From Eledone cirrhosa (Eukaryota): a stretch of 64,000 bases of DNA. The stretch spans positions 363,630,001-363,694,000 of the forward strand of contig OZ024742.1 of NCBI GenBank assembly GCA_964016885.1, given 5' to 3'. Positions within the stretch are counted from its first letter, which is position 1. The number at the start of each line of letters is the position of its first letter. Shown here in pieces: positions 21,001 to 64,000 of the stretch. A program made the position numbers and the translations under genes. The notes beneath the pieces were generated by a model. It saw only the letters and a list, made by a program, of their open reading frames with translations. It did not search any database and was not told where the DNA came from.

Positions 21001-21492
21001 TGGTTGAGAGCCTTAGTGTGTGGTGTGGGAGAGAGTGTGTGTATGTGGTTGAGAGCCGTAGTGTGTGGGTGTGGTGGAGTGTGTGTATGTGGTTGAGAGC
21101 CGTAGTGTGTGTATGTGGGAGGGAGTGTGAGTATGTGGTTGGGGGCCGTAGTGTATGGTGTGGGGGAGTGTGTGTATGTGGTTGAGAGCCTTAGTGTGTA
21201 GTGTGGGTGGGAAGTGTGTGTATATGGTTGAGTGCCGTAGTGTGTGTATGTGGGAGGGAGTGTGTGTATGTGGTTGGGAGCCGTAGTGTATGATGTGGGG
21301 GGAGTGTGTGTACGTGGTTGAGAGCCGTAGTGTGTGGTGGGAGGGGGAGTAGTGTCTGTATGTGGTTGAGAGACGTAGTGTGTGATGTGGGAGAGAGTGT
21401 GTGTATATGGTTGAGAACCTTAGCGTGTGGTGTGGGAGGGAGTGTGTGTATGTGGTTGAGAGACATAGTGAGTGGTGTGGGGCGGAGTGTGT
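1..21492. repeat. 45-bp GT/G-rich minisatellite array (runs off the left edge)
   Basis: Unit GTGTGTGTATGTGGTTGAGAGCC(G/T)TAGTGTGTGGTGTGGGAGGGA repeated head to tail. 44-bp and other indel variants occur, CCGTAG/CCTTAG variants often alternate, and divergence rises after about 20400. Confidence 0.98.
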
Positions 21493-27400: not shown

Positions 27401-28065
27401 TCAATGTGTCTGACTGTTTAACTGTGTGCGTCAATGTGTCTGACTATGAACCTGTGTGTGTGAATGTGTGTGAATGTGTAAATGTGTGTCAATGTGTCTG
27501 ACTGTACCTGTGTGTTTCAATGTGTCTGACTGTGTACATGTGTGTTTCAATGTGTCTGACTGTGTAACTGTGTGTGTCAATGTGTCTGATTGTGTAACCG
27601 TGTGTGTTAACGTGTCTGACTGTGTAACTGTGTGTGTCAATGTGTCTTACTGTGTAACCGTGTGTGTCAATGTGTCTGACTGTGTAACTATGTGTCAATG
27701 TGTCTGTCTGTGTACCCTGTGTGGGAAAGTGTCTGACTGTGTAACTGTGTGTGTCAATGTATCTGACTGTTTAACTGTGTGCGTCAATGTATCTGACTAT
27801 CAACCTGTGTGTGTCAATGTGTCTGAATGTGTAAATGTGTGTCAATGTGTCTGACTGTACCTGTGTGTTTCAATGTGTCTGACTGTGTACCTGTGTGTGT
27901 CAATGTGTTTGACTGTGTAACTGTGTGTGTCAATGTGTCTGATTGTGTAACTGTGTGTGTTAATGTGTCTTACTTTGTAACTGTGTGTGTCAATGTGTCT
28001 GACTGTGTAATAATGTGTGTATATGTGTCTGACTGTGTAACTGTCTATGTCAATGTGTCTAACTA
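21493..28065. repeat. 30-bp minisatellite array built from 10-bp subunits
   Basis: Unit TGTCAATGTGTCTGACTGTGTAACTGTGTG (clean at 26290-26460), with frequent 28-bp variants. More diverged than the 45-mer. Ends abruptly at the PLE junction at 28066. Confidence 0.97.
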
Positions 28066-29305
28066 TGGTTCTGGCTCCTCTATACACTCTGATTTTATCT
28101 CTCTGATTGTAGCCAGAGAACTGCATACGGTGGATGAAGTGTTGTACGTGTCTCTCTAGTTCTTCGGGGTTTCACATGCCGGACACGTTTCTCATCACCC
28201 GTACCAAATCCGCAATCAGTATGTTGATTTAGGTATGGTCCGAAACGGCCGAGTTTCGGTGGATCAGATGTTTGGAAGTCATGGGTTTGGCAAAATGGGA
28301 ATGGAGGATTTGTTTTTTGTTGTTAATGGTGTCTAACTAGAGCTCTGTGTCTAGTACAGGTAATCGATGGTTGTGGTGTTTACTTGGGTAGTCTATAGTA
28401 AATCTAATGCTCTGGTGGATGGAGTTAGCTATTTGCTGGATGCTTTCCATTGTGCTTTTCTCTAGTTCCTGACTGTTCTCTAGAGGGGGTGTCTTAACTA
28501 CGATGTTTATATCATCAACGTAGCGGGAGTACATTATCAGGGTTAAGGGGGCTTCTAATTGTTCTTTAAGTTTAAGTTTAAGTCTACTGTCCCACTATAC
28601 CATGAATAAGTTAGCTATGTCGCCTGCAATCCTAACACCAATGGCTGCTCCTTCCTCTTGGGCATATGTTTTTCCATTAAATTTGAACATATGTTCCTTA
28701 AGGGTTAGTTTTATGCTGGCCCCTACCGCATTTGCATTAATTTTCTTCAGTTCATCGTGGTTTTCGGGCGTCCGTATGGCTCTGGTCCACCCGTTCCATC
28801 TATCTGTGTGGGTTTTCTTGGCCATTGAGGTAATGGTAGGTGGTCTGCCTCTTGCTGGTCTTGTAGGGCACAGGTTGCTAAGGTCATATGTGTCTAGGTA
28901 ATTATTACTATAGGTAAGTTTAAGTAGGAGTCCCAGCTCACTGGTATCAATCCCACGGAACTCAACATTGCTCTCACTGATCATTTCTACGCATTTCTCC
29001 ACAGCAAAATCCACGTCAATAGATGGATACAGGGACACAACATCCATACTACCTATTATGCAGTTTGTTAGGTCCCTAGATCGGTTACTCACGCCGATTC
29101 TGCTGGGGAGGTTCTCCGTGCTGTCACATACATCTGGGGACATTTCAATGATGGGGCGTATGATCAGGGAGAGGAAGTAGGACAGTCTGTAGTTACTAGC
29201 AATGTTAGCTCCACAGACTGGCCCTGTTGGTGGTCCCGTGACAGGATCACTGCCCGTTTTATGGTCTTTTCGAAGCCCATACAACGTCGGCACGTCATTG
29301 TTACA
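28066..29305 (-). pseudogene. Inverted duplicated arm of the PLE-A RT region
   Basis: Minus-strand translation gives YGLRKDHK, GSMDVVSLYPSI, GAAIG, RYVDD and RMQFSGY with in-frame stops; it mirrors 29498-30737. Confidence 0.92.
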
Positions 29306-31412
29306 ACAGACAAGTCTGGCAGAATGTCGGTTGACAGCCTGCCAAACTACATCCAGGCAATGCAACCCAACATCACAAACACAAGAGAGGTAACACCACA
29401 GGAGCATGAGGATAGAGAAAAAGCCCTCAATGCCCATATGGTGATGTGGACGAATATAATGCAGCCCAACAAAAGGACTGCCAGCAACTTCCAGGCCTGG
29501 AACAATGACGTGCCGGCGTTGTATGGGCTTTAAAAAGACCATAAAACGGGCAGTGACCCTGTCACGGGACCACCAACACGGCCAGTCTGTGGAGCTAACA
29601 TTGCTAGTAACTACAGACTGTCCTACTTCCTCTCCCTGATCATACGCCCCATCATTGAAATGTCCCCAGATGTATGTGACAGCACGGAGGACCTCCTCAG
29701 CAGAATCGGCGTGAGTAACCGATCTAGGGACCTAACAAACTGCATAATAGGTAGTATGGATGTTGTGTCCCTGTATCCATCTATTGACGTGGATTTTGCT
29801 GTGGAGAAATGCGTAGAAATGATCAGTGAGAGCAATGTTGAGTTCCGTGGGATTGATACCAGTGAGCTGGGACTCCTACTTAAACTTACCTATAGTAATA
29901 ATTACCTAGACACATATGAACTTAGCAACCTGTGCCCTACAAGACCAGCAAGAGGCAGACCACCTACCATTACCTCAATGGCCAAGAAAACCCACACAGA
30001 TAGATGGAACGCGTGGACCAGAGCCATACGGACACCCGAAAACCACGATGAACTGAAGAAAATTATTGCACATGCGGTAGGGGCCAGCATAAAACTAACT
30101 CTTAAGGAACATATGTTCAAATTTAATGGAAAAACATATGCCCAAGAGGAAGGAGCAGCCATTGGTGTTAGCATTGCAGGCGACATAGCTAATTTATTCA
30201 TGGTATGGTGGGACAGTAGACTTAAACTTAAACTTAAAGAACAATTAGAAGACCCCTTAACCCTGATAATGTACTCCCGCTACGTTGATGATATAAACAT
30301 CGTAGTTAAGACACCGCCACTAGAGAACAGTCAGGAACTAGAGAAAAACACAATGGAAAGCATCCAGCAAATAGCAAACTCCATCCACCAGAGCATTAGA
30401 GTTACTATAGACTACCCAAGCAAACACCCCAACCATCGATTACCTGTACTAGACACAGAGCTCTGGTTAGATACCATTAACAACAAAAAACAAATCCTCC
30501 ATTCCCATTATGCCAAACCCATGACTTCCAAACATCTGATCTACCGAAACTCGGCCGTTTCGGACCATACCAAAATCAACATACTGATTGCGGATTTGGT
30601 ACGGGTGATGAGAAACGTGTCCCGCATGTGCAACCCCGAAGAACTAGAGAGACACGTACAACACTTCATCCACCGTATGCAGTTCTCTGGCTACAATCAG
30701 AGAGATAAAATCAGAGTGTATAGAGGAGCCAGAACCAAATGGGAAAAAATGGTAAATAATGACATAAATGGGACCTGCCCTTTGTACAGGAGAAAATTTT
30801 GGAATAGAATAGAAAGAACTAGGAACAAGGCTAATAGAATAAACTCATGGTATGAGAGCAATAAATACCAGAGTGTAATGTTCATCGATACAACCCCTAG
30901 AGGGGAATTAGCTTACAAATTTAGAAGGGCCCTAAACAAACATAAACTCAATATTAAGATAGTAGAACGACCAGGTACATCCGTAAAAACACTTATTAGC
31001 AAGACATACCCTTTTCAAAGACCCTCATGTATAGATAAGAAATGTATAACCCGTAAAATAAGCCCCCATATTAACTGCAAAACTAGAAATGTAGTGCAAT
31101 AGCATAAGATGTACTGAAGGACAATGTAGAGACAAAAATATAGTGTACATAGGTGAGACAGCTCGTAGTGTAGGAGAACGGATAAATGAACACTAGCGAG
31201 ACCTTCAAGATAGTAAAGAATCATCTGTACTCTACCAACATGCTAAAATAGAACACAAGGGTAAATTAGAGAACATAGAAATAAAAATAGAATCTACACA
31301 CAGAAAAGACGCAATGTTTAGACAAATTACAGAAGCAATAAACATAAAAGAATTACAACCAAAATTAAATAGAAAATATGAGTGGAACAGCAACATCACA
31401 ACTTACAATTAA
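29301..31412 (+). pseudogene. PLE-A reverse transcriptase + GIY-YIG endonuclease, disrupted
   Basis: TDKSG, YGL*KDHK (TAA at 29531), RPVCGA, DVVSLYPSI, RYVDD, LPVLD, Cys-rich linker. After a +1 shift at 31097 it reads SIRCTEGQC..IVYIGETARSVGERINEH*..EAINI..QPKLN, ending at TAA 31412. Confidence 0.9.
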
Positions 31413-33989: not shown

Positions 33990-34025
33990 TCTACTGATGA
34001 AAGACTAACGTCCGAAACGTTAAGA
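33990..34025 (+). ncRNA. Minimal hammerhead motif in a solo pLTR fragment (about 33981-34102)
   Basis: tcta-CTGATGA-a-agac(taac)gtcc-GAAA-cg-TT-aaga with palindromic AACGTT stem III and single mismatches in stems I and II. Flanked by (TTTA)n and (TA)n. Confidence 0.65.
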
Positions 34026-34098
34026 CCCTCTTCCTGCTATATCAAGGGTTAACCTAATATATACTGTACCGATTATGTTGTTATTTCTGTTTACCTTT

Positions 34099-39644: not shown

Positions 39645-39959
39645 TTAATTGTAAGTTTTGATGTTGCTGTTCAACTCATATTTTCTATTTAATTTTGGTT
39701 GTAATTCTTTTATGTTTATTGCCTCTGTAATTTGTCTAAACATTGCGTCTTTTCTGTGTGTAGATTCTATTTTTATTTCTATGTTCTCTAATTTACCCTT
39801 GTGTTCTATTTTAGCATGTTGGTAGAGTACAGATGATTCTTTACTATCTTGAAGGTCTCGCTAGTGTTCATTTATCCGTTCTCCTACACTACGAGCTGTC
39901 TCACCTATGTACACTATATTTTTGTCTCTACATTGTCCTTCAGTACATCTTATGCTATT
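39645..39959 (-). pseudogene. Out-of-frame GIY-YIG endonuclease segment of PLE-A copy 2
   Basis: +1 frame relative to the RT ORF: SIRCTEGQC..VYIGETARSVGERINEH*RDL.., with TAG at 39861-39863. Confidence 0.85.
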
Positions 39960-42153
39960 GCACTACATTTCTAGTTTTGCAGTTAATATGGGGGCTTAAT
40001 TTACAGGTTATACATTTCTTGTCTATACATGAGGGTCTTTGAAAAGGGTATGTCTTGCTAATAAGTGTTTTTACGGAGGTTCCTGGTCTTTCTACTATCT
40101 TAATATTGAGTTTATGTTTATTTAGGGCCCTTCTAAATTTGTAAGCTAATTCACTTCTAGGGGTTGTATCGATGAACATTACACTCTGGTATTTATTGCT
40201 ATCATACCATGAGTTTATTCTATTAGCCTTGTTCCTAGTTCTTTCTATTCTATTCCAAAATTTGCTCCTATACAAGGGACAGGTCCTATTTATGTCATTA
40301 TTTACCATTTTTTCCCATTTGGTTCTGGCTCCTCTATACACTCTGATTTTATCTCTCTGATTGTAGCCAGAGAACTGCATACGGTGGATGAAGTGTTGTA
40401 TGTGTCTCTCTAGTTCTTCGGGGTTGCACATGCGGGACACGTTTCTCATCACCCGTAGCAAATCCGCAATCAGTATGTTGATTTTTGTATGGTCCGAAAC
40501 GGCTGAGTTTCGGTGGATCAGATGTTTGGAAGTCATGGGTTTGGCAAAATGGGAATGGAGGATTTGTTTTTTGTTATTAATGGTATCTAACCAGGGCTCT
40601 GTGTCTAGTACAGGTAATCGATGGTTGGGGTGTTTACTTGGGTAGTCTATAGTAACTCTAATGCTCTGGTGGATGGAGTTTGCTATTTGCTGGATGCTTT
40701 CCATTGTGCTTTTCTCTAGTTCCTGACTGTTCTCTAGTGGCGGTGTCTTAACTACGATGTTTATATCATCAACGTAGCGGGAGTACATTATCAGGGTTAA
40801 GGGGTCTTCTAATTGTTCTTTAAGTCTAAGTTTAAGTCTACTGTCCCACCATACCATGAATAAGTTAGCTATGTCGCCTGCAATGCTAACACCAATGGCT
40901 GCTCCTTCCTCTTGGGCATATGTTTTTCCATTAAATTTGAACATATGTTCCTTAAGGGTTAGTTTTATGCTGGCCCCTACCGCATGTGCAATCATTTTCT
41001 TCAGTTCATCGTGGTTTTCGGGTGTCCGTATGGCTCTGGTCCACCCGTTCCATCTATCTGTGTGGGTTTTCTTGGCCATTGAGGTAATGGTAAGTGGTCT
41101 GCCTCTTGCTGGTCTTGTAGGGCACAGGTTGCTAAGGTCATATGTGTCTAGGTAATTATTACTATAGGTAAGTTTAAGTAGGAGTCCCAGCTCACTGGTA
41201 TCAATCCCACGGAACTCAACATTGCTCTCACTGATCATTTCTACGCATTTCTCAACAGCAAAATCCACGTCAATAGATGGATACAGGGACACAACATCCA
41301 TACTACCTATTATGCAGTTTGTTAGGTCCCTAGATCGGTTACTCACGCCGATTCTGCTGAGGAGGTTCTCCGTGCTGTCACATACATCTGGGGACATTTC
41401 AATGATGGGGCGTATGATCAGGGAGAGGAAGTAGGACAGTCTGTAGTTACTAGCAATGTTAGCTCCACAGACTGGCCGTGTTGGTGGTCCCGCGACAGGG
41501 TCACTGCCCGTTTTATGGTCTTTTCGAAGCCCATACAACGCCGGCACGTCATTGTTCCAGGCCTGGAAGTTGCTGGCAGTCCTTCTGTTGGGCTGCATTA
41601 TATTCGTCCACATCACCATATGGGCATTGAGGGCTTTTTCTCTATCCTCATGCTCCTGTGGTGTTACCTCTCTTGTGTTAGTGATGTGGGGTTGCATTGC
41701 CTGGATGCAGTTTGGCAGGCTGTCAACCGACATTCTGCCAGACTTGTCTGTTGGAAAGCATGCTATCTCTTCATTTTGCGAGCGCTGCCTGAGCTTACGC
41801 AAGCCATTTGCAGATTTTTCTCCCAGTTGCTGGGCCTCCATTCTATTATGCTTCTTGCTATACTGTTCTATAACATTTCTAAGTTCGCATCTAGCTATAC
41901 TAAATTGTGCTTCTGTTTGTTCATCGACCTGCGACGGCAATTGCGTGCGTTTGCTAAATGGTAAAGTCGTGGCGTGGACTCGTCGCAGGTCGAACGATTT
42001 ATCGGAGGGATTATAAAAAGTAGTGTTCCAGGCTGCTGCTTTATGTGTACTAATGCTATTGTTATTGTTAGTTGTGTTGTTTCTATTTCTATTTCCACCA
42101 ACAGCCTCATGGTTGTTTCTATGTCTCTCATAATTGCTCCTGTCTCTTTCCAC
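39955..42153 (-). CDS. PLE reverse transcriptase (732 aa open) ending at the start of the GIY-YIG domain
   Basis: DKSG, YGLRKDHK, PTRPV, DVVSLYPSI, GAAIG, RYVDD, LPVLD, thumb, CxxxxCxxC..C. The start is a GTG and the frame stays open upstream to the junction near 42249, so the true N-terminus is probably missing. Confidence 0.88.
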   Translation of the reverse strand: MERDRSNYERHRNNHEAVGGNRNRNNTTNNNNSISTHKAAAWNTTFYNPSDKSFDLRRVHATTLPFSKRTQLPSQVDEQTEAQFSIARCELRNVIEQYSKKHNRMEAQQLGEKSANGLRKLRQRSQNEEIACFPTDKSGRMSVDSLPNCIQAMQPHITNTREVTPQEHEDREKALNAHMVMWTNIMQPNRRTASNFQAWNNDVPALYGLRKDHKTGSDPVAGPPTRPVCGANIASNYRLSYFLSLIIRPIIEMSPDVCDSTENLLSRIGVSNRSRDLTNCIIGSMDVVSLYPSIDVDFAVEKCVEMISESNVEFRGIDTSELGLLLKLTYSNNYLDTYDLSNLCPTRPARGRPLTITSMAKKTHTDRWNGWTRAIRTPENHDELKKMIAHAVGASIKLTLKEHMFKFNGKTYAQEEGAAIGVSIAGDIANLFMVWWDSRLKLRLKEQLEDPLTLIMYSRYVDDINIVVKTPPLENSQELEKSTMESIQQIANSIHQSIRVTIDYPSKHPNHRLPVLDTEPWLDTINNKKQILHSHFAKPMTSKHLIHRNSAVSDHTKINILIADLLRVMRNVSRMCNPEELERHIQHFIHRMQFSGYNQRDKIRVYRGARTKWEKMVNNDINRTCPLYRSKFWNRIERTRNKANRINSWYDSNKYQSVMFIDTTPRSELAYKFRRALNKHKLNIKIVERPGTSVKTLISKTYPFQRPSCIDKKCITCKLSPHINCKTRNVVQ

Positions 42154-42249
42154 TGGCTCATTGTTGTTATCTACCCTATTTTGTGTGTCTGTGTGTTCGT
42201 CTTGGTTATTTTCTTTGTCCTTAGTCTCCCTTCTCCTTTTTAATCCTAT

Positions 42250-43176
42250 GCAACTGGAGTCTTATTTTTAAAAAAATATATATATTTATTTGGTTCCTTT
42301 ACCGGTTTCGCAGTTCTTCTGCTTTTCAAAAGTAGAGTTGATATGGAAGTTCTGTGGTTTTTCTCATATCTGGTTGGTCTTTGAATGTTACTTGTTTTAT
42401 ATGGAAAAAACTGGCTCGAAACCCCAGGTTTTTAGAGAAGTAATTTGATTGGTTGTTAAATAAGTATAATACATTTCGCGCCAGTTCGCGTTACAAAGTT
42501 CTTCAAACACGGGGGATGGGACTCAGGTTATTTTTTCATATATGAGTGTTTGAATTTCTTTTTACTTAAAAAGGGGGGAGGGGCTCACGAAGGCTTTTTT
42601 TTTAATAAATGTAATTTGATTGGTTATAAATGAAATTATGCTGTCACGTGAACAAGTTCATTAAATTTCGCGCCCGTATTTGGGAATTTATTTTGTAGCC
42701 TTTTAGAGAATTTTTTGACAAACAAAAAATAATGGTCAAGATAAATGGGATGGGAGAATTGTACTGGTTCAGTGAATATAACAGGTTGTTTTTTCATATA
42801 TGAGTGAAGTTTGGTTGGTTGATGTAGTCACGTGAATAAGTATATCAGCTTTCGCGTAAGTTTGTTTGAATTTCTTTTTACTTTAAAAAAGTGGCTCACG
42901 AAGGCTTTTTTTTAATAAATGTAATTTGATTGGTTATAAATGAAATTATGCTGTCACGTGAACAAGTTCATTAAATTTCGCGCCCGTATTTGGGAATTTA
43001 TTTTGTAGCCTTTTAGAGAATTTTATGACAAGCAAAAGATAATGGTCAAGAGAAATGGGATGGGAGAATTGTTCTGGTTCAGTGAATATGGCTGGTTCGC
43101 TGGGGTGTCCGAATTCAGATTTTCTATTGAAATAAAGAAAGTAGAGATATGTATCTTTATTTCTGTGCTTGTGTGT

Positions 43177-44457: not shown

Positions 44458-44520
<63 letters not shown>

Positions 44521-44525
<5 letters not shown>

Positions 44526-44757
44526 AAAAAGTATGACCCCGACGGCAGAGCTCAAGCCATTTCGACGGCTATTTCTGGACTAAATTAGAAATTGTTAGCC
44601 AGGCTAAAAATTTCTAATTTAGTCCAGAAATAACCGTCGAAACGGCTTGAGCTCTGCCGTCGGGGTCATACTTTTTCCTATTTCCCACTCTACTACCCTA
44701 ATTATTGGGTACTCTGGTGCGTTATGGTCCATCTGGTTCATTACCACAATTCCTTTG

Positions 44758-44760
<3 letters not shown>
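44521..44760 (+). mobile_element. Palindromic mini-element P1 (80-bp arms, axis 44601) carrying the 3' half of a hammerhead
   Basis: 44521-44600 mirrors 44602-44681. Contains GAAA-cggc(ttgagctct)gccg-TC-gggg; an unpaired 80-bp tail follows; (TA)n on both sides. Confidence 0.85.
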
Positions 44761-44809
<49 letters not shown>

Positions 44810-44939
44810 GTGAGGTTTTTTTTACAAAATGAAAAATAACCGAGGTGTCCTACACGAGTGGAAGTATAAAGAAAAAGGGATGAAATCGAAAATGCAACTG
44901 AAGTCTTATTTTTTTAAAAATATATATATTTATTTGGTT

Positions 44940-44977
44940 CCTTTACCGGTTTCGCAGTTCTTCTGCTTTTCAAAAGG
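44940..44977 (-). ncRNA. Minimal hammerhead, U3-A8 core
   Basis: Mirror image of 45046-45083. Confidence 0.8.
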
Positions 44978-45045
44978 TGAGTTGAGATGGAGGGTCTGTG
45001 GTTTTTCTCTTGTGAGAAAAACCACAGACCCTCCATCTCAACTCA

Positions 45046-45083
45046 CCTTTTGAAAAGCAGAAGAACTGCGAAACCGGTAAAGG
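45046..45083 (+). ncRNA. Minimal hammerhead, U3-A8 core
   Basis: cctt-TTGAAAA-gcag(aagaa)ctgc-GAAA-ccgg-TA-aagg. Stems I and II perfect, palindromic ACCGGT stem III, GUA cleavage after 45079. Confidence 0.82.
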
Positions 45084-46270
45084 AACCAAATAAATATATA
45101 TATTTAAAAAAAAATAAGACTTCAGTTGCATTTTCGATTTCATCCCTTTTTCTTTATATATATATATATATATATACACATCAATCCCGTTGGTCTATTG
45201 TCGAGTACCTGTACTGTGTTCATTCCTAATATTTTCATTCCAGACTATTTGAGCCCTGGGGAGAACAGTATTGTACTTTAAAGAACCGAAGTTACAATGA
45301 CACCTATTTTACAGATGGGAGAGAAACTACTCCAAGTTCCTCTCTTTCACAAGTTTTCTATTTCTCTGATTTGACTAATGTGTTACTACTTGATACGCAC
45401 ACATGCAACTATATATATATATATATATATATTTGGTGTGGGATGCTTAAAGCGTCCGTATTCAGGTAGGACGTTTGAGCCCTCGATGCTCTTACAGAGC
45501 AGAGTATAATATCACATGGAAACTCTGCTTCGAGAGATTGAGATGTATCTGAAGAACTTGCGATTTCTGAGTCAGGTTGGATCATCGCATCAATCGTGCC
45601 TCGAGCTGATCGCCAGAGAAACGATTATAATATGTCTAATACATTCTAATTCGTCGCACCACTGATTCTCCGTTTCTTATGTGATATATATATAATCTTA
45701 CCCATAATCATATGAGCAAGCTCACTTTTGCCGCATGAAAGCTAACCGGAACAAATGTTTAAACAAATTTATTTGTCAATCAAGATAATCTGTTTAATCC
45801 ATGTCTTAAATTACACATGATATGTTCACCTCATTTGTTACTACATGGTGATAAATCTTTGTGTAAGCTGCTGGAAGATATTATTGTTTTCAAAAAAGTG
45901 ACGAGAGTTTATGGAACAAGGATATAGAATTTTTGAATGAGAAATAAATATACGGTGGCTTCCATCTTGAATTTAAAGTGTCTACGTCAATTCAGCAATG
46001 ATGCTGTCATTATCTGTAGTGACATCCGATATGGAACGTTATATATGATTCTCAAATCAAATAAAAATATAGGAATAAATAAATAAAATTTGTAAAAAAT
46101 GTGAAAGGAAACACAAATAAATATATAAATAATGGAAAGAAGAAATAAGTTTTGGGTTTATGTTTGCTTTTTGGGTTATAATTACTGTTGTTGTTTTATT
46201 TATAAAATTATATTTACGTATATAATAAATTGGAATATAAGAAACGAACGTTCTGAAGATACATATTTAA

Positions 46271-48058: not shown

Positions 48059-48267
48059 ATAACGAAGGAAATGTGGTAAGGAACCAGGTGGACCATAACG
48101 CAACAAAGTACTCAATACTTAGGGTAGTAGAGTGGGTAATAGGAACAAGTAAGACCCCGACGGCTGAGCTCAAGCCGTTTCGACGGCTAATTCTGTACTG
48201 AGTACTAATTGAGTACAGAATTAGCCGTCGAAACGGCTTGAGCTCAGCCGTCGGGATCTTACTTGTT

Positions 48268-48272
<5 letters not shown>
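48059..48272 (-). mobile_element. Palindromic mini-element P3, same family as P1, opposite orientation
   Basis: 48139-48199 mirrors 48212-48272. Contains GAAA-cggct(tgagctc)agccg-TC-ggg; the tail 48059-48138 is homologous to 44682-44760; (TA)n on both sides. Confidence 0.85.
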
Positions 48273-48307
<35 letters not shown>

Positions 48308-48310
<3 letters not shown>

Positions 48311-49795
48311 TACACGCATACACACACACACATATTTATATGTGCGTGGTTTTGTATACCTATGGTAAGTGTTTTGCGGATGATTGTGTATGTACGTATT
48401 TGTTTGCGTGTATGTATTTATTTATTTCTATTACTTCTGTATTGTATTTATTTACTTTGTTCTTAACTCTGTAGCGGAGATTCATTCGGTCTCCTTGTTA
48501 GAATTTTACTCTACGACTTCTGCTATACCATTTACGTGGTTTTGTATTTGCGTGCTTTGTTCTCCACGCTCCACATATGACGTATTATCTTCGTTTTTTT
48601 CGTTCATTGCCAGAGAACGTCTCTAAAAAATCTGAGGCAATTTCGGCTTGTAAACATAAAGTGCACAAAACTTTCCTGTATTACAGCCCCACGTTATACC
48701 CTAACGGATAGTACGATTTATACGTGGATATTTTACGTCTTGATGTGGTAGCTAAGTATATGTTTTCTTTATACCATTACTTATTTGCATAGGGAAGTAT
48801 ATTTTACCCGTATGTTTTGTGAAGGTACGTAATCCTTCTAGTACGTATATTTGATTGTTTATGTTATGGCGTATACTTTTATATATTCTGGTACATATGG
48901 TTTGGCTATGTGTATACGGGAGTTTTGCCTCTGTGTGAGTATGCAGGTTCGTACGTATGTAGGGTGTGTGTATATGTGTACTTCTTGTTTTGGTTGACAT
49001 ACGTCTCCGAACATTCGTGATTTTACATGTAGGTATGTGTGTGCGCTTGTTATATACGTATTTATTTATTTATATACGTTTATATAATTATTTATTTATT
49101 AGTATACACGCATACACACACACATATTTATATGTGCGTGGTTTTGTATCCCTATGGTAAGTGTTTTGCGTATGATTGTGTATGTACGTGTTTGTTTGCG
49201 TGTATGTATTTATTTATTTCTATTACTCCTGTATTGTATTTATTTACTTTGTTCTTAACTCTGTAGCGGAGATTCATTTGGTCTCCTTGTTAGAATTTTA
49301 GTCTACGACTTCTGCTATACCATTTACGTGGTTTTGTCTTTGCGTGCTTTGTTCTCCACGCTCCACATATGACGTATTATCTTCGTTTTTTTCGTTCATT
49401 GCCAGAGAACGTCTCTATGAACCACCTAAGAGAACATTAGTCTACGACCTCTTTTATACCATAAACGTGGTTTTGTCTTTGCGCGTAATTGTTTTTCACC
49501 GCTCCTATTAATGACGTATTATATTCGTTTTTTCCCGTTCTTTGCCAGCGAACGTTTCTACGAACCAAAGTATCGTCTTCCTGTCTTCCTCCAGTTGCAA
49601 CGTTTTTTGAAATATCCACTTCTGCGTTCACAGATTGACTTTGTTAGTTTCAGAAGATCCCGTTAAGGGTGAAAGCAGCGATTCTTTGTTTAAACTTTAA
49701 TCTGTTATTTTAATAAATATTTGCTCTACGGTTCTCTTATATATTTGATATATATTTATCCTTATCGAACCCTCTTTGGATCTTAGTCTTCAAAT
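48308..49795 (+). mobile_element. Heavily 5'-truncated Naiad-like PLE (family N3) with partial tandem duplication
   Basis: 48625-49660 is homologous to 62870-64000; 48308-48624 is a direct repeat of about 49100-49416; HHR at 49630-49705. Confidence 0.85.
49630..49705 (+). ncRNA. Type I hammerhead-like fold with CAGAAGA (U4A) core and extended stem I
   Basis: acagattg..agttt-CAGAAGA-t-ccc(gttaa)ggg-t-GAAA-gca(gcgattctt)tgt-TT-aaact-t-taatctgt, followed by AATAAA. Confidence 0.72.
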
Positions 49796-49832: not shown

Positions 49833-51322
49833 TCCTTGAATCTCAGTCATTGATGTTGGTTAACTGGAAAGTCCGTTGGATTGAATATCAAGCCACTACC
49901 TGCAGCCTCAGATATTCAGGACGTATCGGAGGGTTCTTGCCGTTCCAAGCAAGCATGCCTTTTGAAGCGTTCCAAAAAGCGTGAAGGGGCCGATTTTCTT
50001 TAACCATCCCTGGAAACCTTTGGAGATAGTCCCCAGTGCGCCTATGACAATCGGGATCACTTTGACTTCATGGCAGTTCCAAATCCTTTTCACCTCCCAC
50101 TTTAGGTCCTGGTATCGGTTAATTTTCTCCCTCTCCTTCTCTTGCACTCTCGTGTCGAACGGGCAGGCCACATCCACAATCAGGCACGATCTTTTTTCTT
50201 TGTCCACAACCACCAGGTCAGGTCTATTGTGTTCCAGTTTTTTGTCCGTCTGTATCCTAAAATCCCACAGCACCTTCACCTGACTGTTCTCCATCACCGC
50301 CTCTGGCCTATGCTCATACCATTTCTCAGAATGTGGTAGATTGTTTACTTTGCACAGGTGCCAGTGGATCACCCTGCCCATCACATCGTGTCTCCAGCCC
50401 TTATAGTGGGTCTGGGCTAGGTGTTTACACTCGGACACAATGTGAGCCACAGTCTCCTCTCTCTCTCCACAGATCCTGCACAGTGGGCTAGCCTCCTCCT
50501 TGTAGATATGGTGCTTCAACCACTTCGTTTTGAGGGCCTGCTCCTGCGCAGCCATTAGCATTCCTTCTGTAGCCTTTTTGAGGTCTCCTCTTCTCAACCA
50601 GTTCCATGTCTGTGGATCTCTAAATTCAGTTTTCTCAAAGAAGGTACTATGAAGGGATTTTCCCTTAAGGCTGCTCTTCCTCCTTGATGTTATTTCCTCC
50701 TTGGGTATCCCCTGGCCTACTCTCCCCTCCTTCAGTACAGCTCTGAGCATTGGCTCCTTACTATAGGTCACGTATTTGTATAGGTTGTTTTTCTCCATCT
50801 GAACACAGTCCTCTATGCTGATAAGACCTCTTCCACCCTCAGATCTCCTTAGGTAGAGTCTATCGACATCACTCCTCTTGTGGAACATGTTGTAGATAGT
50901 CAATAGCTTCCTAGTCTTCCTATCCATTTCTTTTTGTTCAGCAACATTCCATCTCAGAATTCCCGCACTGTACCTAATAATAGACACAGCTCGGGAATTT
51001 ACTGCGCTTATGGCATTTCTGCTGTTCAGATGTGACTTCAATACGCTCCTTACTCTCCGAATGTATTCAGTTCTTAACAATTCCTTCATTTTTTTGTTCT
51101 TTATGCCATCAGCCTCCAGAACGCCCAAATACTTGTATCCTTCCTCAGAGTCAATTTCCTTTATCATCTCACCTGTTGGTATCTGGATCCCGTTACTTCT
51201 GCTCAACCTACCCCTCCTCATCACAATGACTCCACATTTACCAATACCAAACTGCATACATATATCACTGCTGAAAATACGGACAGTGTCAACAAGCACA
51301 TCCAACTCCTTCTCACTTTTCC
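49833..51322 (-). mobile_element. 5'-truncated R4/Dong-clade non-LTR retrotransposon in a (TAA)n tract
   Basis: (TTA)n on both flanks (49796-49832, 51342-51396), short 3' UTR, and RT-CCHC-REL coding region. Confidence 0.85.
49908..51305 (-). CDS. C-terminal RT + CCHC zinc knuckle + restriction-like endonuclease (truncated just after the catalytic DD motif)
   Basis: FGIGKC, YKYLG, GGRGL, CRICGEREETVAHIVSEC, RHD, RPDLVVVD..IVDV, KINRYQDL, PIVIGALG. 465 codons uninterrupted; no genuine start codon. Confidence 0.88.
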   Translation of the reverse strand: MDVLVDTVRIFSSDICMQFGIGKCGVIVMRRGRLSRSNGIQIPTGEMIKEIDSEEGYKYLGVLEADGIKNKKMKELLRTEYIRRVRSVLKSHLNSRNAISAVNSRAVSIIRYSAGILRWNVAEQKEMDRKTRKLLTIYNMFHKRSDVDRLYLRRSEGGRGLISIEDCVQMEKNNLYKYVTYSKEPMLRAVLKEGRVGQGIPKEEITSRRKSSLKGKSLHSTFFEKTEFRDPQTWNWLRRGDLKKATEGMLMAAQEQALKTKWLKHHIYKEEASPLCRICGEREETVAHIVSECKHLAQTHYKGWRHDVMGRVIHWHLCKVNNLPHSEKWYEHRPEAVMENSQVKVLWDFRIQTDKKLEHNRPDLVVVDKEKRSCLIVDVACPFDTRVQEKEREKINRYQDLKWEVKRIWNCHEVKVIPIVIGALGTISKGFQGWLKKIGPFTLFGTLQKACLLGTARTLRYVLNI

Positions 51323-51340
51323 CTTTTTTTTTTTTTTTTC

Positions 51341-51455
<115 letters not shown>

Positions 51456-51984
51456 ATATAAGGAAAAAAGATGAAAATTGGAAATGCAACTTGAGTCTTT
51501 TTAAAAATATTATTTGGTTCCTTTACCGGTTTCGTAGTTCTTGTGCTTTTCAAAAGTAGAATTGAGATGGAGGGTTTGTGTTTTTTTCCGCATCTGGTTG
51601 GTGTTCGAATGTTACTTCTGTTTTATATGGAAAAAAGTGGGTCGAAATGCTAGGATTTTAGAAAAGTAATTTGGTTGGATTGATGACAGTCATGTGAATA
51701 AGTATAGTAAATTTCGCACAAGTTCGCGTTACAAAGTTTTTATTATATTTGCAAATAAATATTCTTTTAAAAGACTCCAGTTAAATTTTTGATTTCATCT
51801 TTTTTCCTTATACTTTCACGAGTGTAGGACATCTCGTTTTTTTTCATTTTGTAAAAAAACCTCATTTTCTAATACATACCCATCACACGAAGACTGAAAA
51901 TTCCACCAAAGTCTCTACAAAACGACAACTCACTGAATCAGGACATAGTAAATTTCTCATACCATGAACTACCGCAACCTAAAC

Positions 51985-53929
51985 CCAAACCCAACACGAG
52001 TCGAAGGGAGTGGGAGATTATCCATGAACTAAAAAACAAAACTGACATTGTAATTAAGGAAGCGGATAAAGGGAGGTACTGTCGTCATTATGGATCCTGA
52101 ACAATATAACAATTCTATGTTCTCTCTCTTACAAAACACTAACTACTATGAAAGAGTAAAAAAGTACCAGAAATCAAAAACGATGACCAGATTAAACACA
52201 TTCATTTGTCGATATCAGGAAGACTTAACTAAAAAGGAACGCGTGTATTTACACATTTTGAATACAAAACCATCAACCTTTACGGACTTCCGAAGATCCA
52301 CAAGTGTAAATAATTAATGATGCCTGTAAAGAATCCTCCTCAACCTGCGTGAACACCCAATACCCCACTGACCTTAAATTAAGACCAATTGTAGCGGGCG
52401 CACAATGTGAAACACACAGACTAAGCAACTTTATAGACATACTACTAAAACCAATTATCAAACACATACCAAGCCTTGTAAGAGACGATCTGGATCTCTT
52501 AAACCACCACCCCAAACATGTCAACAACGACACTATTATTGTGTCTTTCGATGTAGTGAATCTCTACACAACGATCCCACACTAATACGGACTTGAAGCA
52601 ATAGGATTCTGGCTAGAGAAATATCCCAATGAGATACCTGACAGAATAGAAAAAAGCTTCATCACCGAGGGATTAACATTTATTTTACAGAACAACTTTT
52701 TTGATTTCGATGGCAGTACTTACAAGCAAATATCGTGGACTACGATGGGTACAAAAGTCGCTCCAACTTATGCCAGCTTTGTCAATTCGTACTTGGAAGT
52801 CCAGATATATGAACACTCCAAATCAAAATACCGATTGAACTTCAACAATTATTTATCAGAGAATTGGAAACGCTACTTGGATGATTGTCTTATTCTTTGG
52901 TCTCACACACTCGACCAACTAAATGATTTCAAACATGTAATTAACGGCATCAATAACCACATCCAATTCACAATGGAATACAGCCAAGATCAACTCCCAT
53001 TTCTGGACATCTTAATCATAAAAAAGACGCAAATATTGAAACTGACATATACTACAAACCAACAGATTCCAAACAATACCTGCTATTCACCTCCAACCAT
53101 CCAAACCACACGAAGACGAACACCCCTTTTAACCCAGCAAGAAGAATTTGCACAATTGTCTCCAATTATGAAACGCGAAATAAAAGACTTCAAGAATTAA
53201 AGGAAATTCTGCTCGAAAGACAGTACCAACCATTACTAATAAATAATGGAATAGAAAGGGCTAAAGCAATAGGCATTGATGAATTACGAAAACAGAAACA
53301 AATTCAAGGTACGTCCAATATTCTATCATATATCTCAACACACAACCCAAGAAATAAGGAAGCTTACAACATTATTCATAAGAACATCCCACTATTGAAA
53401 CAATACCCAAGAATGAAAAAAAGCCCTTGAAACACACAAAATAATCAAAAGCAAAAGACAAAAGAAATCACTGAAAACATTACTCACCAATGCCAAATTA
53501 CCTACCACAAACCCACAACCAGCTGTAAAAAAATGAGATCGCTCTACTTGTGGAATTTGCACTCACCTCATTGAAGGCAAGATGTATACATTTCAATCAG
53601 GACAAAATTTTGTTGTAAAAAATCACTTCACTTGCTCATCAAAAAATTTACTTTATGCCATTAAATGTAAAGGATGCAATGAAGATTATATAGGACAAAC
53701 TAAACTCACACTCAGAAACAGAATGACAATTCGTCGCTAACAATTACGAGACCCTATCACAAGACAGATACAACCCAGTGCACATCTAGACATATGTGCT
53801 AGTGATAAGACACCCAAATTTCAAGTCTTCCCCTTTTATCTTTGCGTTGACAATACAACAGAACAAATACGAATAAATAAGGAAAATATGTTTATTCAAA
53901 AATATAGACCAGCATTAAATATAGTTTAA
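51985..53929 (+). pseudogene. Neptune-type RT + zinc finger + GIY-YIG endonuclease with multiple frameshifts and stops
   Basis: DIVIKEADKG, YGLPKIHK, LRPIV, SFDVVNLYT, MGTKVAPTYA, WKRYLDD, LPFLD, TDIYYKPTD, CGIC, LLYAIKCKGCNEDYIGQT, RPALN. Confidence 0.9.
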
Positions 53930-57112: not shown

Positions 57113-59326
57113 CTACATTTTAAATTTAAATTTATATTTAAACGTTGAGTTTAATCTATGTTTGCAACAACTGAATAAATTTGTCCGTAGGTTAAGGGAA
57201 TTTTTAGATTTTAGTATAAAGAATATCTCCTCTGCGCAGAAGTCACATGTCTCGGAGGATGAATTAAAAGGAATCCCTCTTGAGACTATATTCCAAGCCG
57301 TCGAATATCTAACGTTATCTAGCTTAAGTTGCCAGAGTACGCCTGATAGTGCCGTTGAAGATTTTTTACTTGGATCTGTGAAAGAATTCTTGTGGTTATT
57401 ATAGCGAAGTTTAAATTCCGTCGATGTGGAACCGACGTAGTTAAAATAATTAGAGTCAGTATTAACATTACAATTGTATACTATATTTTTAACTAAGCAG
57501 TTGTTATTTAACGGACATTTAGATCTATCTCTACAGTTACATTTGTTAACTTGTATATTATTTATGCTATTATTAGTAGGTTTTAAGTTCCTATTATTTA
57601 TTCTATTAATATTTTGTGCTAAATTTTTGGTGGATGAGTAGGTTAATTTAATTGTATGCCTATTGAAGATTGAGTGATACCTATGTGTTCTAGGGAAGCG
57701 ATTATCAAGAGCTTTGAAAAATAATTTAGCGATGTGGGTTTTAATGTTTAGTGAGAAAGGGGGGGCAAACCAAATTATGTTCCTAGTTCTATTTCTTTTT
57801 TGTCCTTTGGAATTATTGTAATGCTTTCTATTATAGTTGTTAATGTTGTTGCCGTAATTAAAAAAGTTGTTACTTTGTTTAGTTTGTCTATCATTATCTA
57901 TGTATACAATCTTATCAGCATATCCTGCCCTAGCTAGTGCATCATTATAGTACTGGGCCTTTTCGTCAAAAATCTTTCTATTCGACGAGATCCTAGAGAT
58001 ACGTTTTTGGACTGAGTTTACTATAGTGTTTTTGACAGATCTGGGGTGGTTAGAGTTAAAGTTGACATAGTTTAAGTTTTCATTCAACTTGTGAAAAGGA
58101 TAGTGGAGACATGTGTTGAGATTTAATGTTATATCTAGGAAATTGACTATTCTATGGTTGTTCTCAATTTCTATTTTAAGGTTAAAGTAATTAAAAAATT
58201 TTGTAATTTGTTTACATTTTCTATTTAGTTCAGGGTTATTATTATTAATAAGTAAAAGCATGTCATCCCTATATAAACCTCCGGTAGTACCAGGTATTTT
58301 CCTATGTAGCGAATTGATTAAAAATAAGCCCACAAGGTCAGTTACCTGAGCTGAGTCGGAAGATCCCATAGTTATGTCAAAATTGTTATCTCTATCTGCT
58401 CTGGTCCATAATTTGTCATTAAATTCTATCAAAGTTTTCCTAGCCGATAATATAATATGCATTTCTTTGCTAGTTAGGTCAGTATGTTTGAATGCGTAAT
58501 TTAGTGCCTTATTTAGTAGACTAGGGGTAATAGAAGAATAATAGTTAGCTATATCAAGTTGAATAAACCTATTATTATTGTTATATTTAATTTGCCTAAA
58601 CCACTCAACAACCTCTCCAGTTCCCTTCCACAAGCTCAGGTTAGATACACAGTCCAAGTTCTTAATTTGCTGTATCACCCTGTCAAGAATGTTTTTGCTT
58701 AATTTGCCCAGGTTCGATTTTGAAGGTGCGATCAATCTAACTGGCAGGTCATTTTCAAAATTCCTCTTGTGGTCCTTCATATTGATCTTCGGTTTCCTGG
58801 GCACGAAAGGTTGTGTTCTGTTCTCAATTTCCAACTCGTGCATTATACAAGATGCTTCGACATTCATTTTCTCAAGTTCGGCCTTATCAGCTACCTTGTA
58901 CTTTTTCCTCAGCTCTTTCAGTATGAGGCCCTTATACATGTCTTTCCGCACTCCATAGAGGTTGTTGGTCTTGTCAGATTTCACCAAGATCTTCTCAGTT
59001 TTCTCTAAGCTCTCAATGTTATCCTTAATGCCTTTCAGATATTCCTGGCCTTTAAAGTTTCTCTTGAATTTGACCCCTTGTATGATAGAAATTATATCGT
59101 TTTCAAAGTCAGATAAAAGTTTGTTAGGGGGTGGATTTCTTTTAAATTTGAAAACTTTGTTTAAGTCCGAGATATTTTCGTCTGCATTAGATTTATCAAA
59201 GTGGAATGCACGCCACCTGATTCTCCTTATAAAAGAGTCAGATTTATCTATTAATTGTTTTACAAAGTCTTTGTTTCTAGGTAGAGGTATGTCTTTTAGA
59301 GAGGAAGTAATCTTAAAGAATTCCAT
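57113..59326 (-). CDS. Intact 737-aa PLE polyprotein: RT + GIY-YIG endonuclease (Naiad-like)
   Basis: ATG start; SLKDIP, FIRRIRWRAF, KSDKT, KDHK, VRLIAP, LDIANYYSSI, MGSSDSA, LYRDD, FLDITL, SNHP, CNC..CPL..CL, IVY..YVGST..RYNNH, CDFC, CKH. Confidence 0.95.
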   Translation of the reverse strand: MEFFKITSSLKDIPLPRNKDFVKQLIDKSDSFIRRIRWRAFHFDKSNADENISDLNKVFKFKRNPPPNKLLSDFENDIISIIQGVKFKRNFKGQEYLKGIKDNIESLEKTEKILVKSDKTNNLYGVRKDMYKGLILKELRKKYKVADKAELEKMNVEASCIMHELEIENRTQPFVPRKPKINMKDHKRNFENDLPVRLIAPSKSNLGKLSKNILDRVIQQIKNLDCVSNLSLWKGTGEVVEWFRQIKYNNNNRFIQLDIANYYSSITPSLLNKALNYAFKHTDLTSKEMHIILSARKTLIEFNDKLWTRADRDNNFDITMGSSDSAQVTDLVGLFLINSLHRKIPGTTGGLYRDDMLLLINNNNPELNRKCKQITKFFNYFNLKIEIENNHRIVNFLDITLNLNTCLHYPFHKLNENLNYVNFNSNHPRSVKNTIVNSVQKRISRISSNRKIFDEKAQYYNDALARAGYADKIVYIDNDRQTKQSNNFFNYGNNINNYNRKHYNNSKGQKRNRTRNIIWFAPPFSLNIKTHIAKLFFKALDNRFPRTHRYHSIFNRHTIKLTYSSTKNLAQNINRINNRNLKPTNNSINNIQVNKCNCRDRSKCPLNNNCLVKNIVYNCNVNTDSNYFNYVGSTSTEFKLRYNNHKNSFTDPSKKSSTALSGVLWQLKLDNVRYSTAWNIVSRGIPFNSSSETCDFCAEEIFFILKSKNSLNLRTNLFSCCKHRLNSTFKYKFKFKM

Positions 59327-59506
59327 TTTTCCAGTTATAATATAAAGCGCTCAACAGTATTGGAGCAAGGTACATGTAAAGTTATATTTAAAAGTGTTGG
59401 GTTACAACTAGTAAATATTTATAACTGATATAAAAGCACTCGACAAATATTTGGAGTATATTTACAATATTAAATAAATGGAAAACTATATTTATAAAAC
59501 CATATT

Positions 59507-59572: not shown

Positions 59573-60096
59573 CAATATAAACAGTTTTATAGATAAATAG
59601 ATTCGACATACCGTAATAAACATCGACTTCATTTGAAGAGGTTTACGCTAGCAGTGAAAATTTTATACAGAGAGACAGAAAGAGAGAAAAAAAAGAAAGA
59701 AAGACAAAACGAAGAAAAGGAAGAAAAAGAAGAAAAAGAAAAAGAAGAGATGCATGTAACAAAATAGAGAGATGGAAAGATAGATAAAGCGAAGAGCTTC
59801 ATGTAAAGAAACAGAAAGAGATATATATATAGAGAGAGAGAGGAAATAGAGATAGATACATATATATATAGAAAATTAGGTAGTGGGAGGTCATTTTGAG
59901 TAAGTGTATCAATGATACATTTATTTATTTATTTATTTATTTAGCTCAAGTATTAATGTAAGGGAGATATATAGAGAGAAAAGGCATAGCATATTGTTAA
60001 TATGAAAAGGCATAGCATATTGTTAATATGATATCCCCGAAATATATATAATGAAATAAATATGGTTTTATAAATATAGTTTTCCATTTATTTAAT

Positions 60097-60127
<31 letters not shown>

Positions 60128-61275: not shown

Positions 61276-64000
61276 ATTTATTAATATAACAGATTAAAGT
61301 TTAAGCAAAGAATCGCTGCTTTCACCCTTGACGGGTTGTTCTGAAACTAAAAAAATTAATCTGTGAACGCAGAAGTAAATATTTCGAAAAACGTTGCAAC
61401 CGAATGAAGACAGGAAGACGATAGTTTGGTTCGTGGAAACGTTCCCTGGCAAAGAACAGAAAAAAACGAAGATAATACGTCATTAATTGGAGCGCCCTCT
61501 TGCACTGTGGAACAATTGTTTCGCGGTGATTGATTGGTTCAACGGCATATGCAACAAGGAACATTGCCGTTTTATCCAATTCGACATCAATAATTACTAC
61601 ACCTCCATCACTTTACCACTTCTCCTTAGAGCTATCAATTTCGCTAAAAACTCACAGTGGTTAAGGATTTCGAAGTTGATTTCATCCTCAATGCCCGTAA
61701 GTCGGTGATTAATTTCGACGACTCTATTTGATTAAAAAATCTAATAGTACCCCATTCGACGTGAGTATGGGCGCCAGCGATTCTGCAGAGGTTACTGATC
61801 TTATCGGCCTTTTCCTTCTTTTCTCTATCAAGGAAGAATTCCCAAACGTGGGCGGTGGTTTGTACCGTGATGACGGTCTTTTAACCATGACAAAGTGCGG
61901 CCCACATGCTTACGACAGGTTCAGAAAAGAACTCACAGCCTTCTTTAAATGCTTCAACCTCTCCATACAGGTTGAGGCCAACCTCTCGGTCGTTAATTAC
62001 CTCGACGTTACCCTCAATATGTCGAATGGCTTGCACTACCCGTATAGAAAGCCGAACGATACGCTTAATTATATAAGTAAGCATTCTAACCATCCTGCCA
62101 GCATAACCGAGAACCTGGTAAGAAACGTTTCTTTGAGGCTTTCCCGTCTATCTACAAACGAGAATATTTTCACCGACCATTCCACATATTACAATGAAGC
62201 TCTTGCTCGGAGTGGATTTGTCGATAAGGTAGCATATACAGAGTATGAGCATAGACCTAGGAAAAATAGATCCCGACGCATTATATGGTATAGTCCACCA
62301 TAAAACATGGAGTTGGCCACACCATTAGCTAAGATCTTTCTCTCCCTTATTATGAAACATTTCCCCCCAGCACATAAAGATAGTAACATTTTTAATAGAA
62401 ATACCATTACCATTTCTTACTCTACGACTCCTAACCTTGCACATAACATTAAAGCTTCATATTTAGCTAAATTACCTAGCCGTAGGAACACATGCAACCC
62501 TGTAGCTAGTACTAACTGTAATTGTAGGAATCGGGTTGACTGCCCCCTATCCGGGAAATGCCTCTCTAGTAACATTGTCTACAAATGTAAGGTTGAAACA
62601 TCCACGTCCCGTAGGGCCTACATAGGGTTAACCGCCAATAGATTCAAGCAGCGTCTTTACATGCATACACATTCTTTTCTTAACCCTTTAAGAATGAATA
62701 TGACGTCACTTTCAGCTTATATCTGGAGTCTAAAAAACAACCACACCCAATATAAGTTACACTGGGAGATCCTAGCTTAGGCTAGATCGTATAACGAAAA
62801 AAAAGACCATGTGACCTCTGCGCCGCTGAAGCCCTGGAAATACTCTACGCCAAAGACCACATCTTAAACAAAAGATCTGAGGCAATTTCGGCTCGTAAAT
62901 ATGAATTGCACAAAACTTTCCTGTATTACAGCCCTATATTATACCCTAACGGATAGTACGAACTATACGCGGGTATTTTACGTCTTGATGTGGTAGCTAA
63001 GTATATGTTACGTTTATACCATTACTTATTTGTATAGGTAAGTATATATTACCTGTATGTTTTGTGAAGGTACGTATACTTTCTCGTACGTATATTTGCT
63101 TGTAAGTGTTATAGGCGTATATATTATATTATATATATATTGGTACATGTGCATATGGTTATGTGTATACGTGAGTTTTGCGTCTGTGTGAGTATGCGGG
63201 TTCGTACGTATGTAGGGTGTGTGTATATGTGTACTTTGTGTTGGTTGACGTACATTTAGCGAACATATGTGTATTTACATGTAGGTATGTGGGTGGGTGC
63301 GTTATATATGTATTTATGTGTGTTTATATACGTTTATATAATTATATGTATACACACACACACATATATATATATTTATATGTATTTGGTATATACGTTC
63401 GTATGTGTGCGGATACAGGCGTTGCGTGGGTTCTCTATGTGCGTGCGTGTGTTTTTTTTTGCGTACGTGCTTGTATTTGCATACCCATGGCGAGTGTTTA
63501 CGCGTATGCATGTGTATGTACATATTTGGTGCATGTATATACTTAATTTTTGTTGATTTCGATTACCTCTGTAATTTATTTACATTATTCTTAACTCTGA
63601 AGCGGAGAATCATTCGATTTCCTAAATAGAATTTTAGTCTACGACTTCAGTTATACCATTTACGTGGATTTGTCTTTGCGTGTAATTTTTTCTCATCGCT
63701 CCACATACTGACGTATTATCTTCGTTGTTTCCGTTCATTACCAGAGAACGTCTCCACAAACCACCTAATAGAATATTAGTCTACGACTTCATTTATACCA
63801 TAAACGTGGTTTTGTCTGTGCGTGTAATTGTTTTCAACGTTCCAAATAATGACGTATTATCTTCGTTTTTTTTCCGTTCTTTGCCAGGGAACGTTTCCAC
63901 TAACCAAAGTATCGTCTTCCTGTCTTCCTTCGGTTGCAAAGTTTTTCGAAATATTTACTTTTGCGTTCACAGATTGATATTTTTAGTTTCAGAAGATCCC
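61276..64000 (+). mobile_element. 5'-truncated Naiad-like PLE (family N3) with inverted pLTR arm; runs off the right edge
   Basis: 61276-61493 is an inverted pLTR end (HHR at 61289-61364, minus). It is followed by the RT/EN remnant, the 3' UTR and a pLTR with an internal tandem repeat of about 125 bp. The window ends inside the HHR (AGTTT-CAGAAGA-TCCC). Confidence 0.9.
61494..62956 (+). pseudogene. Naiad-type RT + GIY-YIG, disrupted
   Basis: FIQFDINNYYTSI, MGASDSAEV, LYRDD, YLDVTL, SNHP, CNC..CPL..CL, IVY..YIG, CDLC. TAA at 62301, TAG at 62778, and frameshifts. Confidence 0.9.

Follow-up and report, generated by a model that had tools for sequence, protein, structure and literature searches.

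P1 and P3, two short palindromes in a 64,000-nt stretch of the Eledone cirrhosa genome (contig OZ024742.1, positions 363,630,001 to 363,694,000; hereafter the window), are head-to-head, 5′-truncated copies of the end of a Hydra-type Penelope-like element (PLE), inserted in (TA)n tracts, and as objects they are ordinary repeats. The parent element, the two outer ends of such stubs, the coupling by which a stub carries one of each, the sharp inner limit at position −41 and the promoter-like motifs were directly established. We consider it probable, at roughly two chances in three, that the stubs represent two cDNAs that began at different internal sites on a single RNA, ran to its 5′ end and were joined.

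Structure of P1 and P3

Element positions are counted from the predicted ribozyme cut, with the outer side positive and the inner side negative. P1 lies between a (TA)n target tract at 44463–44523, the final ATA of which overlaps the end of the short arm, and another (TA)n tract at 44759–44803. Its short arm, which has no tail, occupies 44521–44600 on the minus strand (PLE end −59 to +20), and its tail arm occupies 44599–44758 on the plus strand (PLE end −62 to +97); the arms overlap by 2 nt, the tail arm extends 3 nt further inward than the short arm, and the axis is the A at 44601 in CC-A-GG. The hairpin has arms of 80 nt (44521–44600 and 44602–44681) that are 96% complementary, and the one-sided tail of 77 nt at 44682–44758 (plus strand, +21 to +97) corresponds to the parent 5′ UTR between the two start sites. 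An initiator-like TTTAGTC is located at 44618–44624 on the plus strand, the A at 44621 being −41, which is the family-wide inner limit and the putative transcription start. P1 itself continues past −41, and its axis at −60 is atypical for the family. The 3′ half of a hammerhead-like motif, consisting of the stem II 3′ strand, GAAA, stem III, GUC and the stem I 3′ strand, follows at 44628–44665 on the plus strand, with the predicted ribozyme cut after 44661 within this GUC-bearing half-motif. Both P1 arms contain a private extra T, which was present in none of 28 other arms.

P3, of a sister subfamily, is 89% alike to P1 across 174 nt. Its tail arm occupies 48062–48201 on the minus strand (about −43 to +97), with the A of TCAGTA (−41) at 48199 and an unpaired tail of 77 nt at 48062–48138 on the same strand, and its short arm occupies 48212–48272 on the plus strand (−41 to +20), followed by (TA)n at 48270–48307. 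The hairpin arms, 48139–48199 and 48212–48272, are 61 nt long and 98% complementary. Between the arms is a junction of 12 nt (48200–48211), at which both arms reach −41, with a short duplication and a G beside the −41 of the short arm.

The initial annotation, made from the letters of the window, had described both elements as hairpins with an unpaired tail on one side between (TA)n tracts, in which GAAA, stem III, GUC and GGG are kept and CTGANGA is absent, and in which the short arm ends at CCTAT; all of this holds for P1 and P3, in which GUC is followed by GGGG. The mirrored substitutions that it reported within each element are present as well, and their meaning is that of subfamily markers of two sister parents, one like the copy L329 and the other like L153. 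An Rfam search over the window returned no hammerhead family at E ≤ 1, and only sub-threshold matches to miRNA hairpins. Over P1, the summed depth of read contigs (two runs of one sample) fell from about 221,000 at 44621–44628 to 28,000 at 44613–44620, a drop that agrees with the −41 limit, yet is confounded by the private T and by short contigs.

The parent element and its predicted ribozyme

Two stub loci (L011 and L018) extend upstream, and tracing them led to long copies with an ORF, with which a protein search of the genome gave many open frames of 784 aa. The tail of the stubs is continuous with this ORF and is the 5′ UTR of the parent. The P1 tail arm was 96.9% identical to the parent copy L329, and the P3 tail arm was 97.9% identical to L153. 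The parent copies examined nearest P1 have broken ORFs, and the intact tandem copies belong to a sister subfamily. One such array (L330, G000:C1:437199800-437208500) consists of intact head-to-tail units of 3,531 bp that are 99.97% identical, which makes present or recent activity of the family probable. Another copy (L099) has the layout pLTR-ORF-pLTR.

The L330 ORF encodes 717 aa from the first Met, with the ATG at +191 from the predicted cut. Since Pfam gave no match on the parent ORF, the reverse transcriptase (RT) and C-terminal GIY-YIG-type domains were read from motifs (YRDD and YIGLT); a motif scan also detected RWR, DKT, CNCx5C, CNLC and CKH, and neither CCHH nor GxKF/Y. A protein search with the parent ORF gave a single match, P0001, at 38% identity. 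Compared with the Hydra clade as characterized in the accessible text of Craig et al. 2021 (PMC8557442), the parent shares the RWR motif (RWK-like), DKT, a CxCx5C linker, CxxC, CxH, the lack of CCHH and of GxKF/Y, and insertion in (TA)n, whereas its unit is 3.5 kb rather than less than 3 kb and its hammerhead core, UUGANAA or CUGAGAA, is not the canonical one. We therefore assign it, by motifs against the published description, as a Hydra-type PLE and not as a proven member of Hydra. The general features of EN+ PLEs were also found, namely an ORF of the RT/GIY-YIG type and a tandem, pLTR-bearing arrangement in the parent, and an inverted, 5′-truncated copy with a one-sided tail. A non-LTR retrozyme is made up of monomers in direct tandem, every one of them bearing a complete hammerhead (bioRxiv 10.64898/2026.07.22.740005, accessible text), and is a different object from these inverted pairs carrying half the motif.

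The initial annotation had predicted a parent with a full hammerhead. A retroelement parent does exist and its hammerhead-like motif is full, with UUGANAA as the core half rather than the CUGANGA expected. The parent folds into a three-way junction (fold z −2.45) and has a type I hammerhead-like layout, in which three stems surround the core and GAAA and UH are present, so that it is a predicted ribozyme. Among eight copies, 89% of the cells in the hammerhead stems pair, compared with 26–58% when the stems are slid; two-sided covariation was absent among these eight close copies. The N of the core (N7) takes all four bases. The core 3–8 pair is U3-A8 in five of the eight copies and C3 with A8 in three, because of which the ribozyme activity of the parent is uncertain. 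One subfamily (L328, L335 and L336) has C3 opposite A8 and a weaker TATA-like box, and it possibly represents a recently mobile lineage with an inactive ribozyme.

In the accessible text of Cervera and de la Pena 2014 (PMC4209133), PLE hammerheads have the type I layout, the U3-A8 core, known there from Schistosoma PLEs, and a palindromic loop III in common with the parent. Unlike them, the present motif has long stems II and III, C3 with A8 in one subfamily, and its 3′ half only in the stubs. The dual opposite-strand hammerheads 100–700 bp apart in the same source resemble the third PLE family of the window, which is dealt with below.

Outer ends, pairing and junctions of the stubs

An exact arm 36-mer had 4,662 matches in the 3.0-Gb genome and its control had none, indicating at least 4,662 arms. 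To describe the arm ends, we used the first 100 of these matches in chromosome order, which represent 84 distinct loci. The outer ends fell at +17 to +20 in 39 of the 84 loci and at +94 to +97 in 38, the main sites being +20 and +97, each of which is followed by TAT in the parent. A (TA)n tract lay within 30 nt of the outer end in 78 of the 84 loci, and there the ends merge into the tract, where a target-site duplication is unreadable.

The loci comprised 63 pairs of arms and 21 unpaired arms. In this position-ordered set, 60 pairs combined a tail arm with a short arm, 3 consisted of two short arms and none of two tail arms (p = 4e-15). The corresponding value in a pooled set, which was partly chosen for having a tail and in which one locus was counted twice, was 117 of 122 pairs. 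Among the long copies, L095 has the ORF in its tail-less copy, and its tailed inverted copy is short.

The two arms of a pair had 117 non-majority letters in common, compared with 18 (maximum 37) in 1,000 permutations, and paired arms differed at 5.2% of sites. Thus, the arms came from one subfamily and later diverged separately; a few pairs, such as L144 and L228, mix subfamilies. This sharing of letters fits either the same RNA or two RNAs of one source.

The junctions between the arms fell into 51 classes among 64 paired loci, which bears out the earlier suggestion of a repeated, independent origin. The commonest junction, −41 against −35, occurred in 11 of the 64 loci and in both polarities. 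A clonal non-autonomous fold-back or MITE family copied as a unit, which the initial annotation had held out as its alternative, would account for the uniform size and for the recurrence of this junction. Such a family is ruled out for practical purposes, being hardly credible, because the junctions are spread over so many classes. The recurrent junction is also found in either polarity, and the sequence continues into a PLE ORF. Whereas a MITE or fold-back DNA transposon has inverted repeats at both termini and a fixed internal structure, the stubs have a tail beyond the repeat at just one of their sides.

Inner ends of the stubs and promoter-like motifs near −41

The furthest inner end was at −42 to −40 in 50 of the 84 loci, namely 37 as scored and 13 after correction by hand. 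The correction concerned 12 ends with a score of −48 and one partner end with a score of −45, which were recognized as chance junction matches and read as −41 or −40. Only 10 of the 84 loci had inner ends 5′ of −45, 6 of them reaching the core. Genome-wide, 9,644 arms (4,315 + 5,329) matched exactly to −41 and 2,234 to −46, corresponding to a loss of 77% in five bases. The same limit was observed without a mirror arm, as 10 of the 21 unpaired copies ended at −45 to −39.

The A of an initiator-like T(T/C)AGT, which occurs as TTAGTC or TCAGTA, occupies position −41; its AGT is kept in all eight parents while the surrounding loop varies. We take this motif to be a putative initiator by the general initiator consensus, and initiator-like motifs are short and common. 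TATWWAW starts at −29 to −31 from −41 in five of seven parents examined and is absent from the subfamily of L328 and L335. A G adjoined −41 at 12 of 22 unselected ends at which both arms reach −41 (hand count; p = 0.003), and the base beside −41 was G in 52, C in 42 and A in 6 of 100, a modest G signal of which 10 of 21 examined G cases are explicable by the partner arm. Copying of a cap would give such a G.

Two other explanations of the limit were dropped, namely a splice acceptor at TTTAG, since the ends keep AG, and TA-microhomology priming at −42, where 4,315 arms carry a base other than T.

Other PLE families of the window as controls

Two other PLE families of the window served as controls, namely that of P2 and that of the ORF at 57113–59350, referred to as the third family. 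P2 is a palindromic stub at 44865–45158 with the same tail-plus-short design, and related copies are present at 42248–42365, which abuts an RT ORF, and at 51472–51589. The ORF in question, at 39955–42261 on the minus strand, is of PLE type with a weak RVT_1 match. The third family has an open frame of 745 aa at 57113–59350 on the minus strand, a second Hydra-type PLE (36% identity over 287 aa). The repeats on either side of it, at about 55539 and about 59564, both contain canonical CUGAUGA hammerheads, and an inverted copy is located near 59980–60100.

The P2 family had 10,680 exact genomic matches. Of the first 30 arms, 17 (19 by eye) had their inner end at −1 to +10 of CC|AGAT, and 11 ran at least 20 nt further; the sole TATAAAA within 300 nt upstream is at exactly −30 in all four parents. 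The third family had 2,922 genomic matches, and its inner ends lay 0–12 nt downstream of the A of TTC|ACT in 16 of 30 arms, with 4 ending later and 10 running on; no TATA box was present at −30 of this limit. As the limit is 90–92 nt upstream of the CTGATGA core, third-family palindromes keep two whole ribozymes. The pairing of a tail arm with a short arm was found by reading in 7 of 7 pairs of the P2 family and in 11 of 12 of the third family, one further tail-tail pair, with its arms 3.5 kb apart, being set aside. In both control families, the limit is at initiator-like A's and the axis is away from any stem II.

Origin of the stubs and alternative explanations

In the mechanism that we propose, an endonuclease would nick both strands of a (TA)n tract, and the 3′ end of each nick would prime reverse transcription at one of the two sites. 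When the 5′-proximal pair of sites is in use, synthesis of the cDNAs would end by run-off at −41, where the transcript would start. The second polymerase would displace the first cDNA, and the two cDNA 3′ ends would be joined via microhomology of 0–2 nt or a few added bases. P3 would fit such run-off directly, both arms being at about −41, and P1, with its axis at −60, may be one of a minority whose template RNA continued beyond the start, for example by tandem read-through. Two internal RT starts that bracket the tail, with both target strands cut and extended, are described in the accessible text of a 2024 study of a PLE system (PMC11167929), and a Penelope promoter in the pLTR in that of PMC2377424.

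The more general proposition, towards which we lean somewhat, is that PLE palindromes come from twin internal priming on one RNA, that the centres of stubs map the transcription start to the base, and that the promoter of the P1/P3 family is interleaved with the ribozyme. The TATA-like box would then be in stem II and the initiator in the stem II loop. Stubs of this family would lose the UUGANAA half because the start sits inside that loop, and the ribozyme would thus be a bystander to the axis. It would also follow from this interleaving that the copy at the 5′ end of the mRNA cannot self-cleave whereas the 3′ copy can.

The initial annotation had attributed the palindromes to snap-back of the cDNA at the ribozyme stem II hairpin followed by self-primed second-strand synthesis, and its interpretation as a whole was partly supported. 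The axis is located in the loop of stem II in most copies when axis positions are tabulated, as it had claimed, the arms share subfamily letters and, in P1, a private T, and in 18 of 60 pairs (with 4 equal) it is the tail arm that extends further inward, an arrangement that fold-back also allows. Nevertheless, we regard this as very improbable as the general route. The junction that it predicts, with the mirror arm continuing to the start of the loop, had no match with one mismatch allowed, and the 33-nt loop that should be retained is lost in most copies. Moreover, since a fold-back must begin from the tail arm, any 5′ sequence in the short arm has to be present in the tail arm too, yet the short arm reaches further in for 38 of the 60 pairs (37 hand-corrected), and five pairs (L102, L109, L169, L180 and L181) have arms that do not overlap at all. 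The long copies are in line with this, as the short copy of L095 is the tailed one. The unpaired copies with the same limit and the position of the axis in the control families are likewise against it. Local fold-back may be the source of P1 or of a minority of junctions. Self-priming on an antisense transcript, which the accessible text of PMC3846280 puts forward for head-to-head PLE palindromes, would also give head-to-head arms with letters in common. It seems improbable here, since by itself it does not account for non-overlapping arms, for unpaired copies with the same limit or for a limit at a sense-strand initiator-like A.

Somewhat more plausible, although still unlikely, is that two cDNAs were made as proposed and −41 marks a stall of the reverse transcriptase at RNA structure or a bound protein. 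A weak hairpin of 7 bp covers −44 to −38 in the P1 subfamily, the limit of the third family is at the base of a predicted stem, and 23% of the arms that reach −41 also reach −46. However, the hairpin is not kept in P3-type parents, the arms of which also end near −41, the polymerase gets through the stronger stems I–III earlier, and a stall would not predict the TATA box of the P2 family at exactly −30. Joining of two cDNAs that ran to the transcript start is our preferred reading.

Relation to known systems

Twin priming by L1 also involves two primers on one RNA, and the twin-primed parts do not overlap, whereas the arms of the present stubs usually do. Strong-stop DNA of LTR elements is a short cDNA that runs off the 5′ end and is then transferred; the 5′ run-off cDNA of our proposal would be similarly short and would be integrated, not transferred.

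The architecture of the stubs is already in print. EN+ PLE insertions in the accessible text of Craig et al. 2021 (PMC8557442) and Arkhipova et al. 2013 (PMC3846280) share the head-to-head inverted copy, a tail at either end, the tandem pLTR parent, the (TA)n target and an initiator-like motif in the pLTR. Their tails measure 30–40 nt compared with 77 nt here, and unlike them the present insertions are mostly ORF-free stubs with a sharp inner limit. In those sources, the tail is explained by endonuclease resolution and antisense self-priming is given as the origin of the palindromes, and the origin of tandem and inverted PLE repeats is stated as open in PMC8557442. In addition to the two starts around the tail, the PLE system of PMC11167929 is similar in that ribozyme cleavage is dispensable for insertion, as it would be here; its starts are inside the ORF and its priming is not homology-based, whereas the present starts, with TAT after them, are in the 5′ UTR. 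Its accessible text contains no treatment of inverted copies or of 5′ run-off. The start-site reading and the strict coupling of tail and short arms were not found in a literature search that covered subscription journals thinly and, among supplements, only those of PMC11167929, which gave no match.

The stubs follow rules that contradict simple self-priming: each start site supplies one arm, the two arms belong to one subfamily, and in three families the inner ends meet a hard limit at a promoter-like site. Should the limit be the transcription start, DNA alone would suffice to map PLE promoters, and the thousands of stubs per family would amount to a fossil 5′ RACE. Many thousands of short palindromes that resemble MITEs or miRNA hairpins are retroelement stubs.

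Other features of the window

PLE-type RT ORFs in an inverted arrangement occupy 28595–31102 on both strands. A hammerhead-like motif, CTGATGA...CGAAACGT, is located beside a (TA)n tract at 33994–34060 and is probably another PLE end. A fourth (TA)n-associated family, present at 48311–49500 and in L031–L060, contains direct repeats internally and ends on the outer side at either of two alternative points, with 1,263 first-look candidates; L031–L060, obtained with a biased query, do not enter the counts given above. Other retroelement ORF fragments, judged by eye, are at 49908–51500 (minus strand), 52310–53430 (plus strand) and 61713–62780 (plus strand). The first part of the window consists of large satellite arrays with extreme strand skew, with units of 45 bp (477 copies) at 1–21494 and of 30 bp (222 copies) at 21487–28064.
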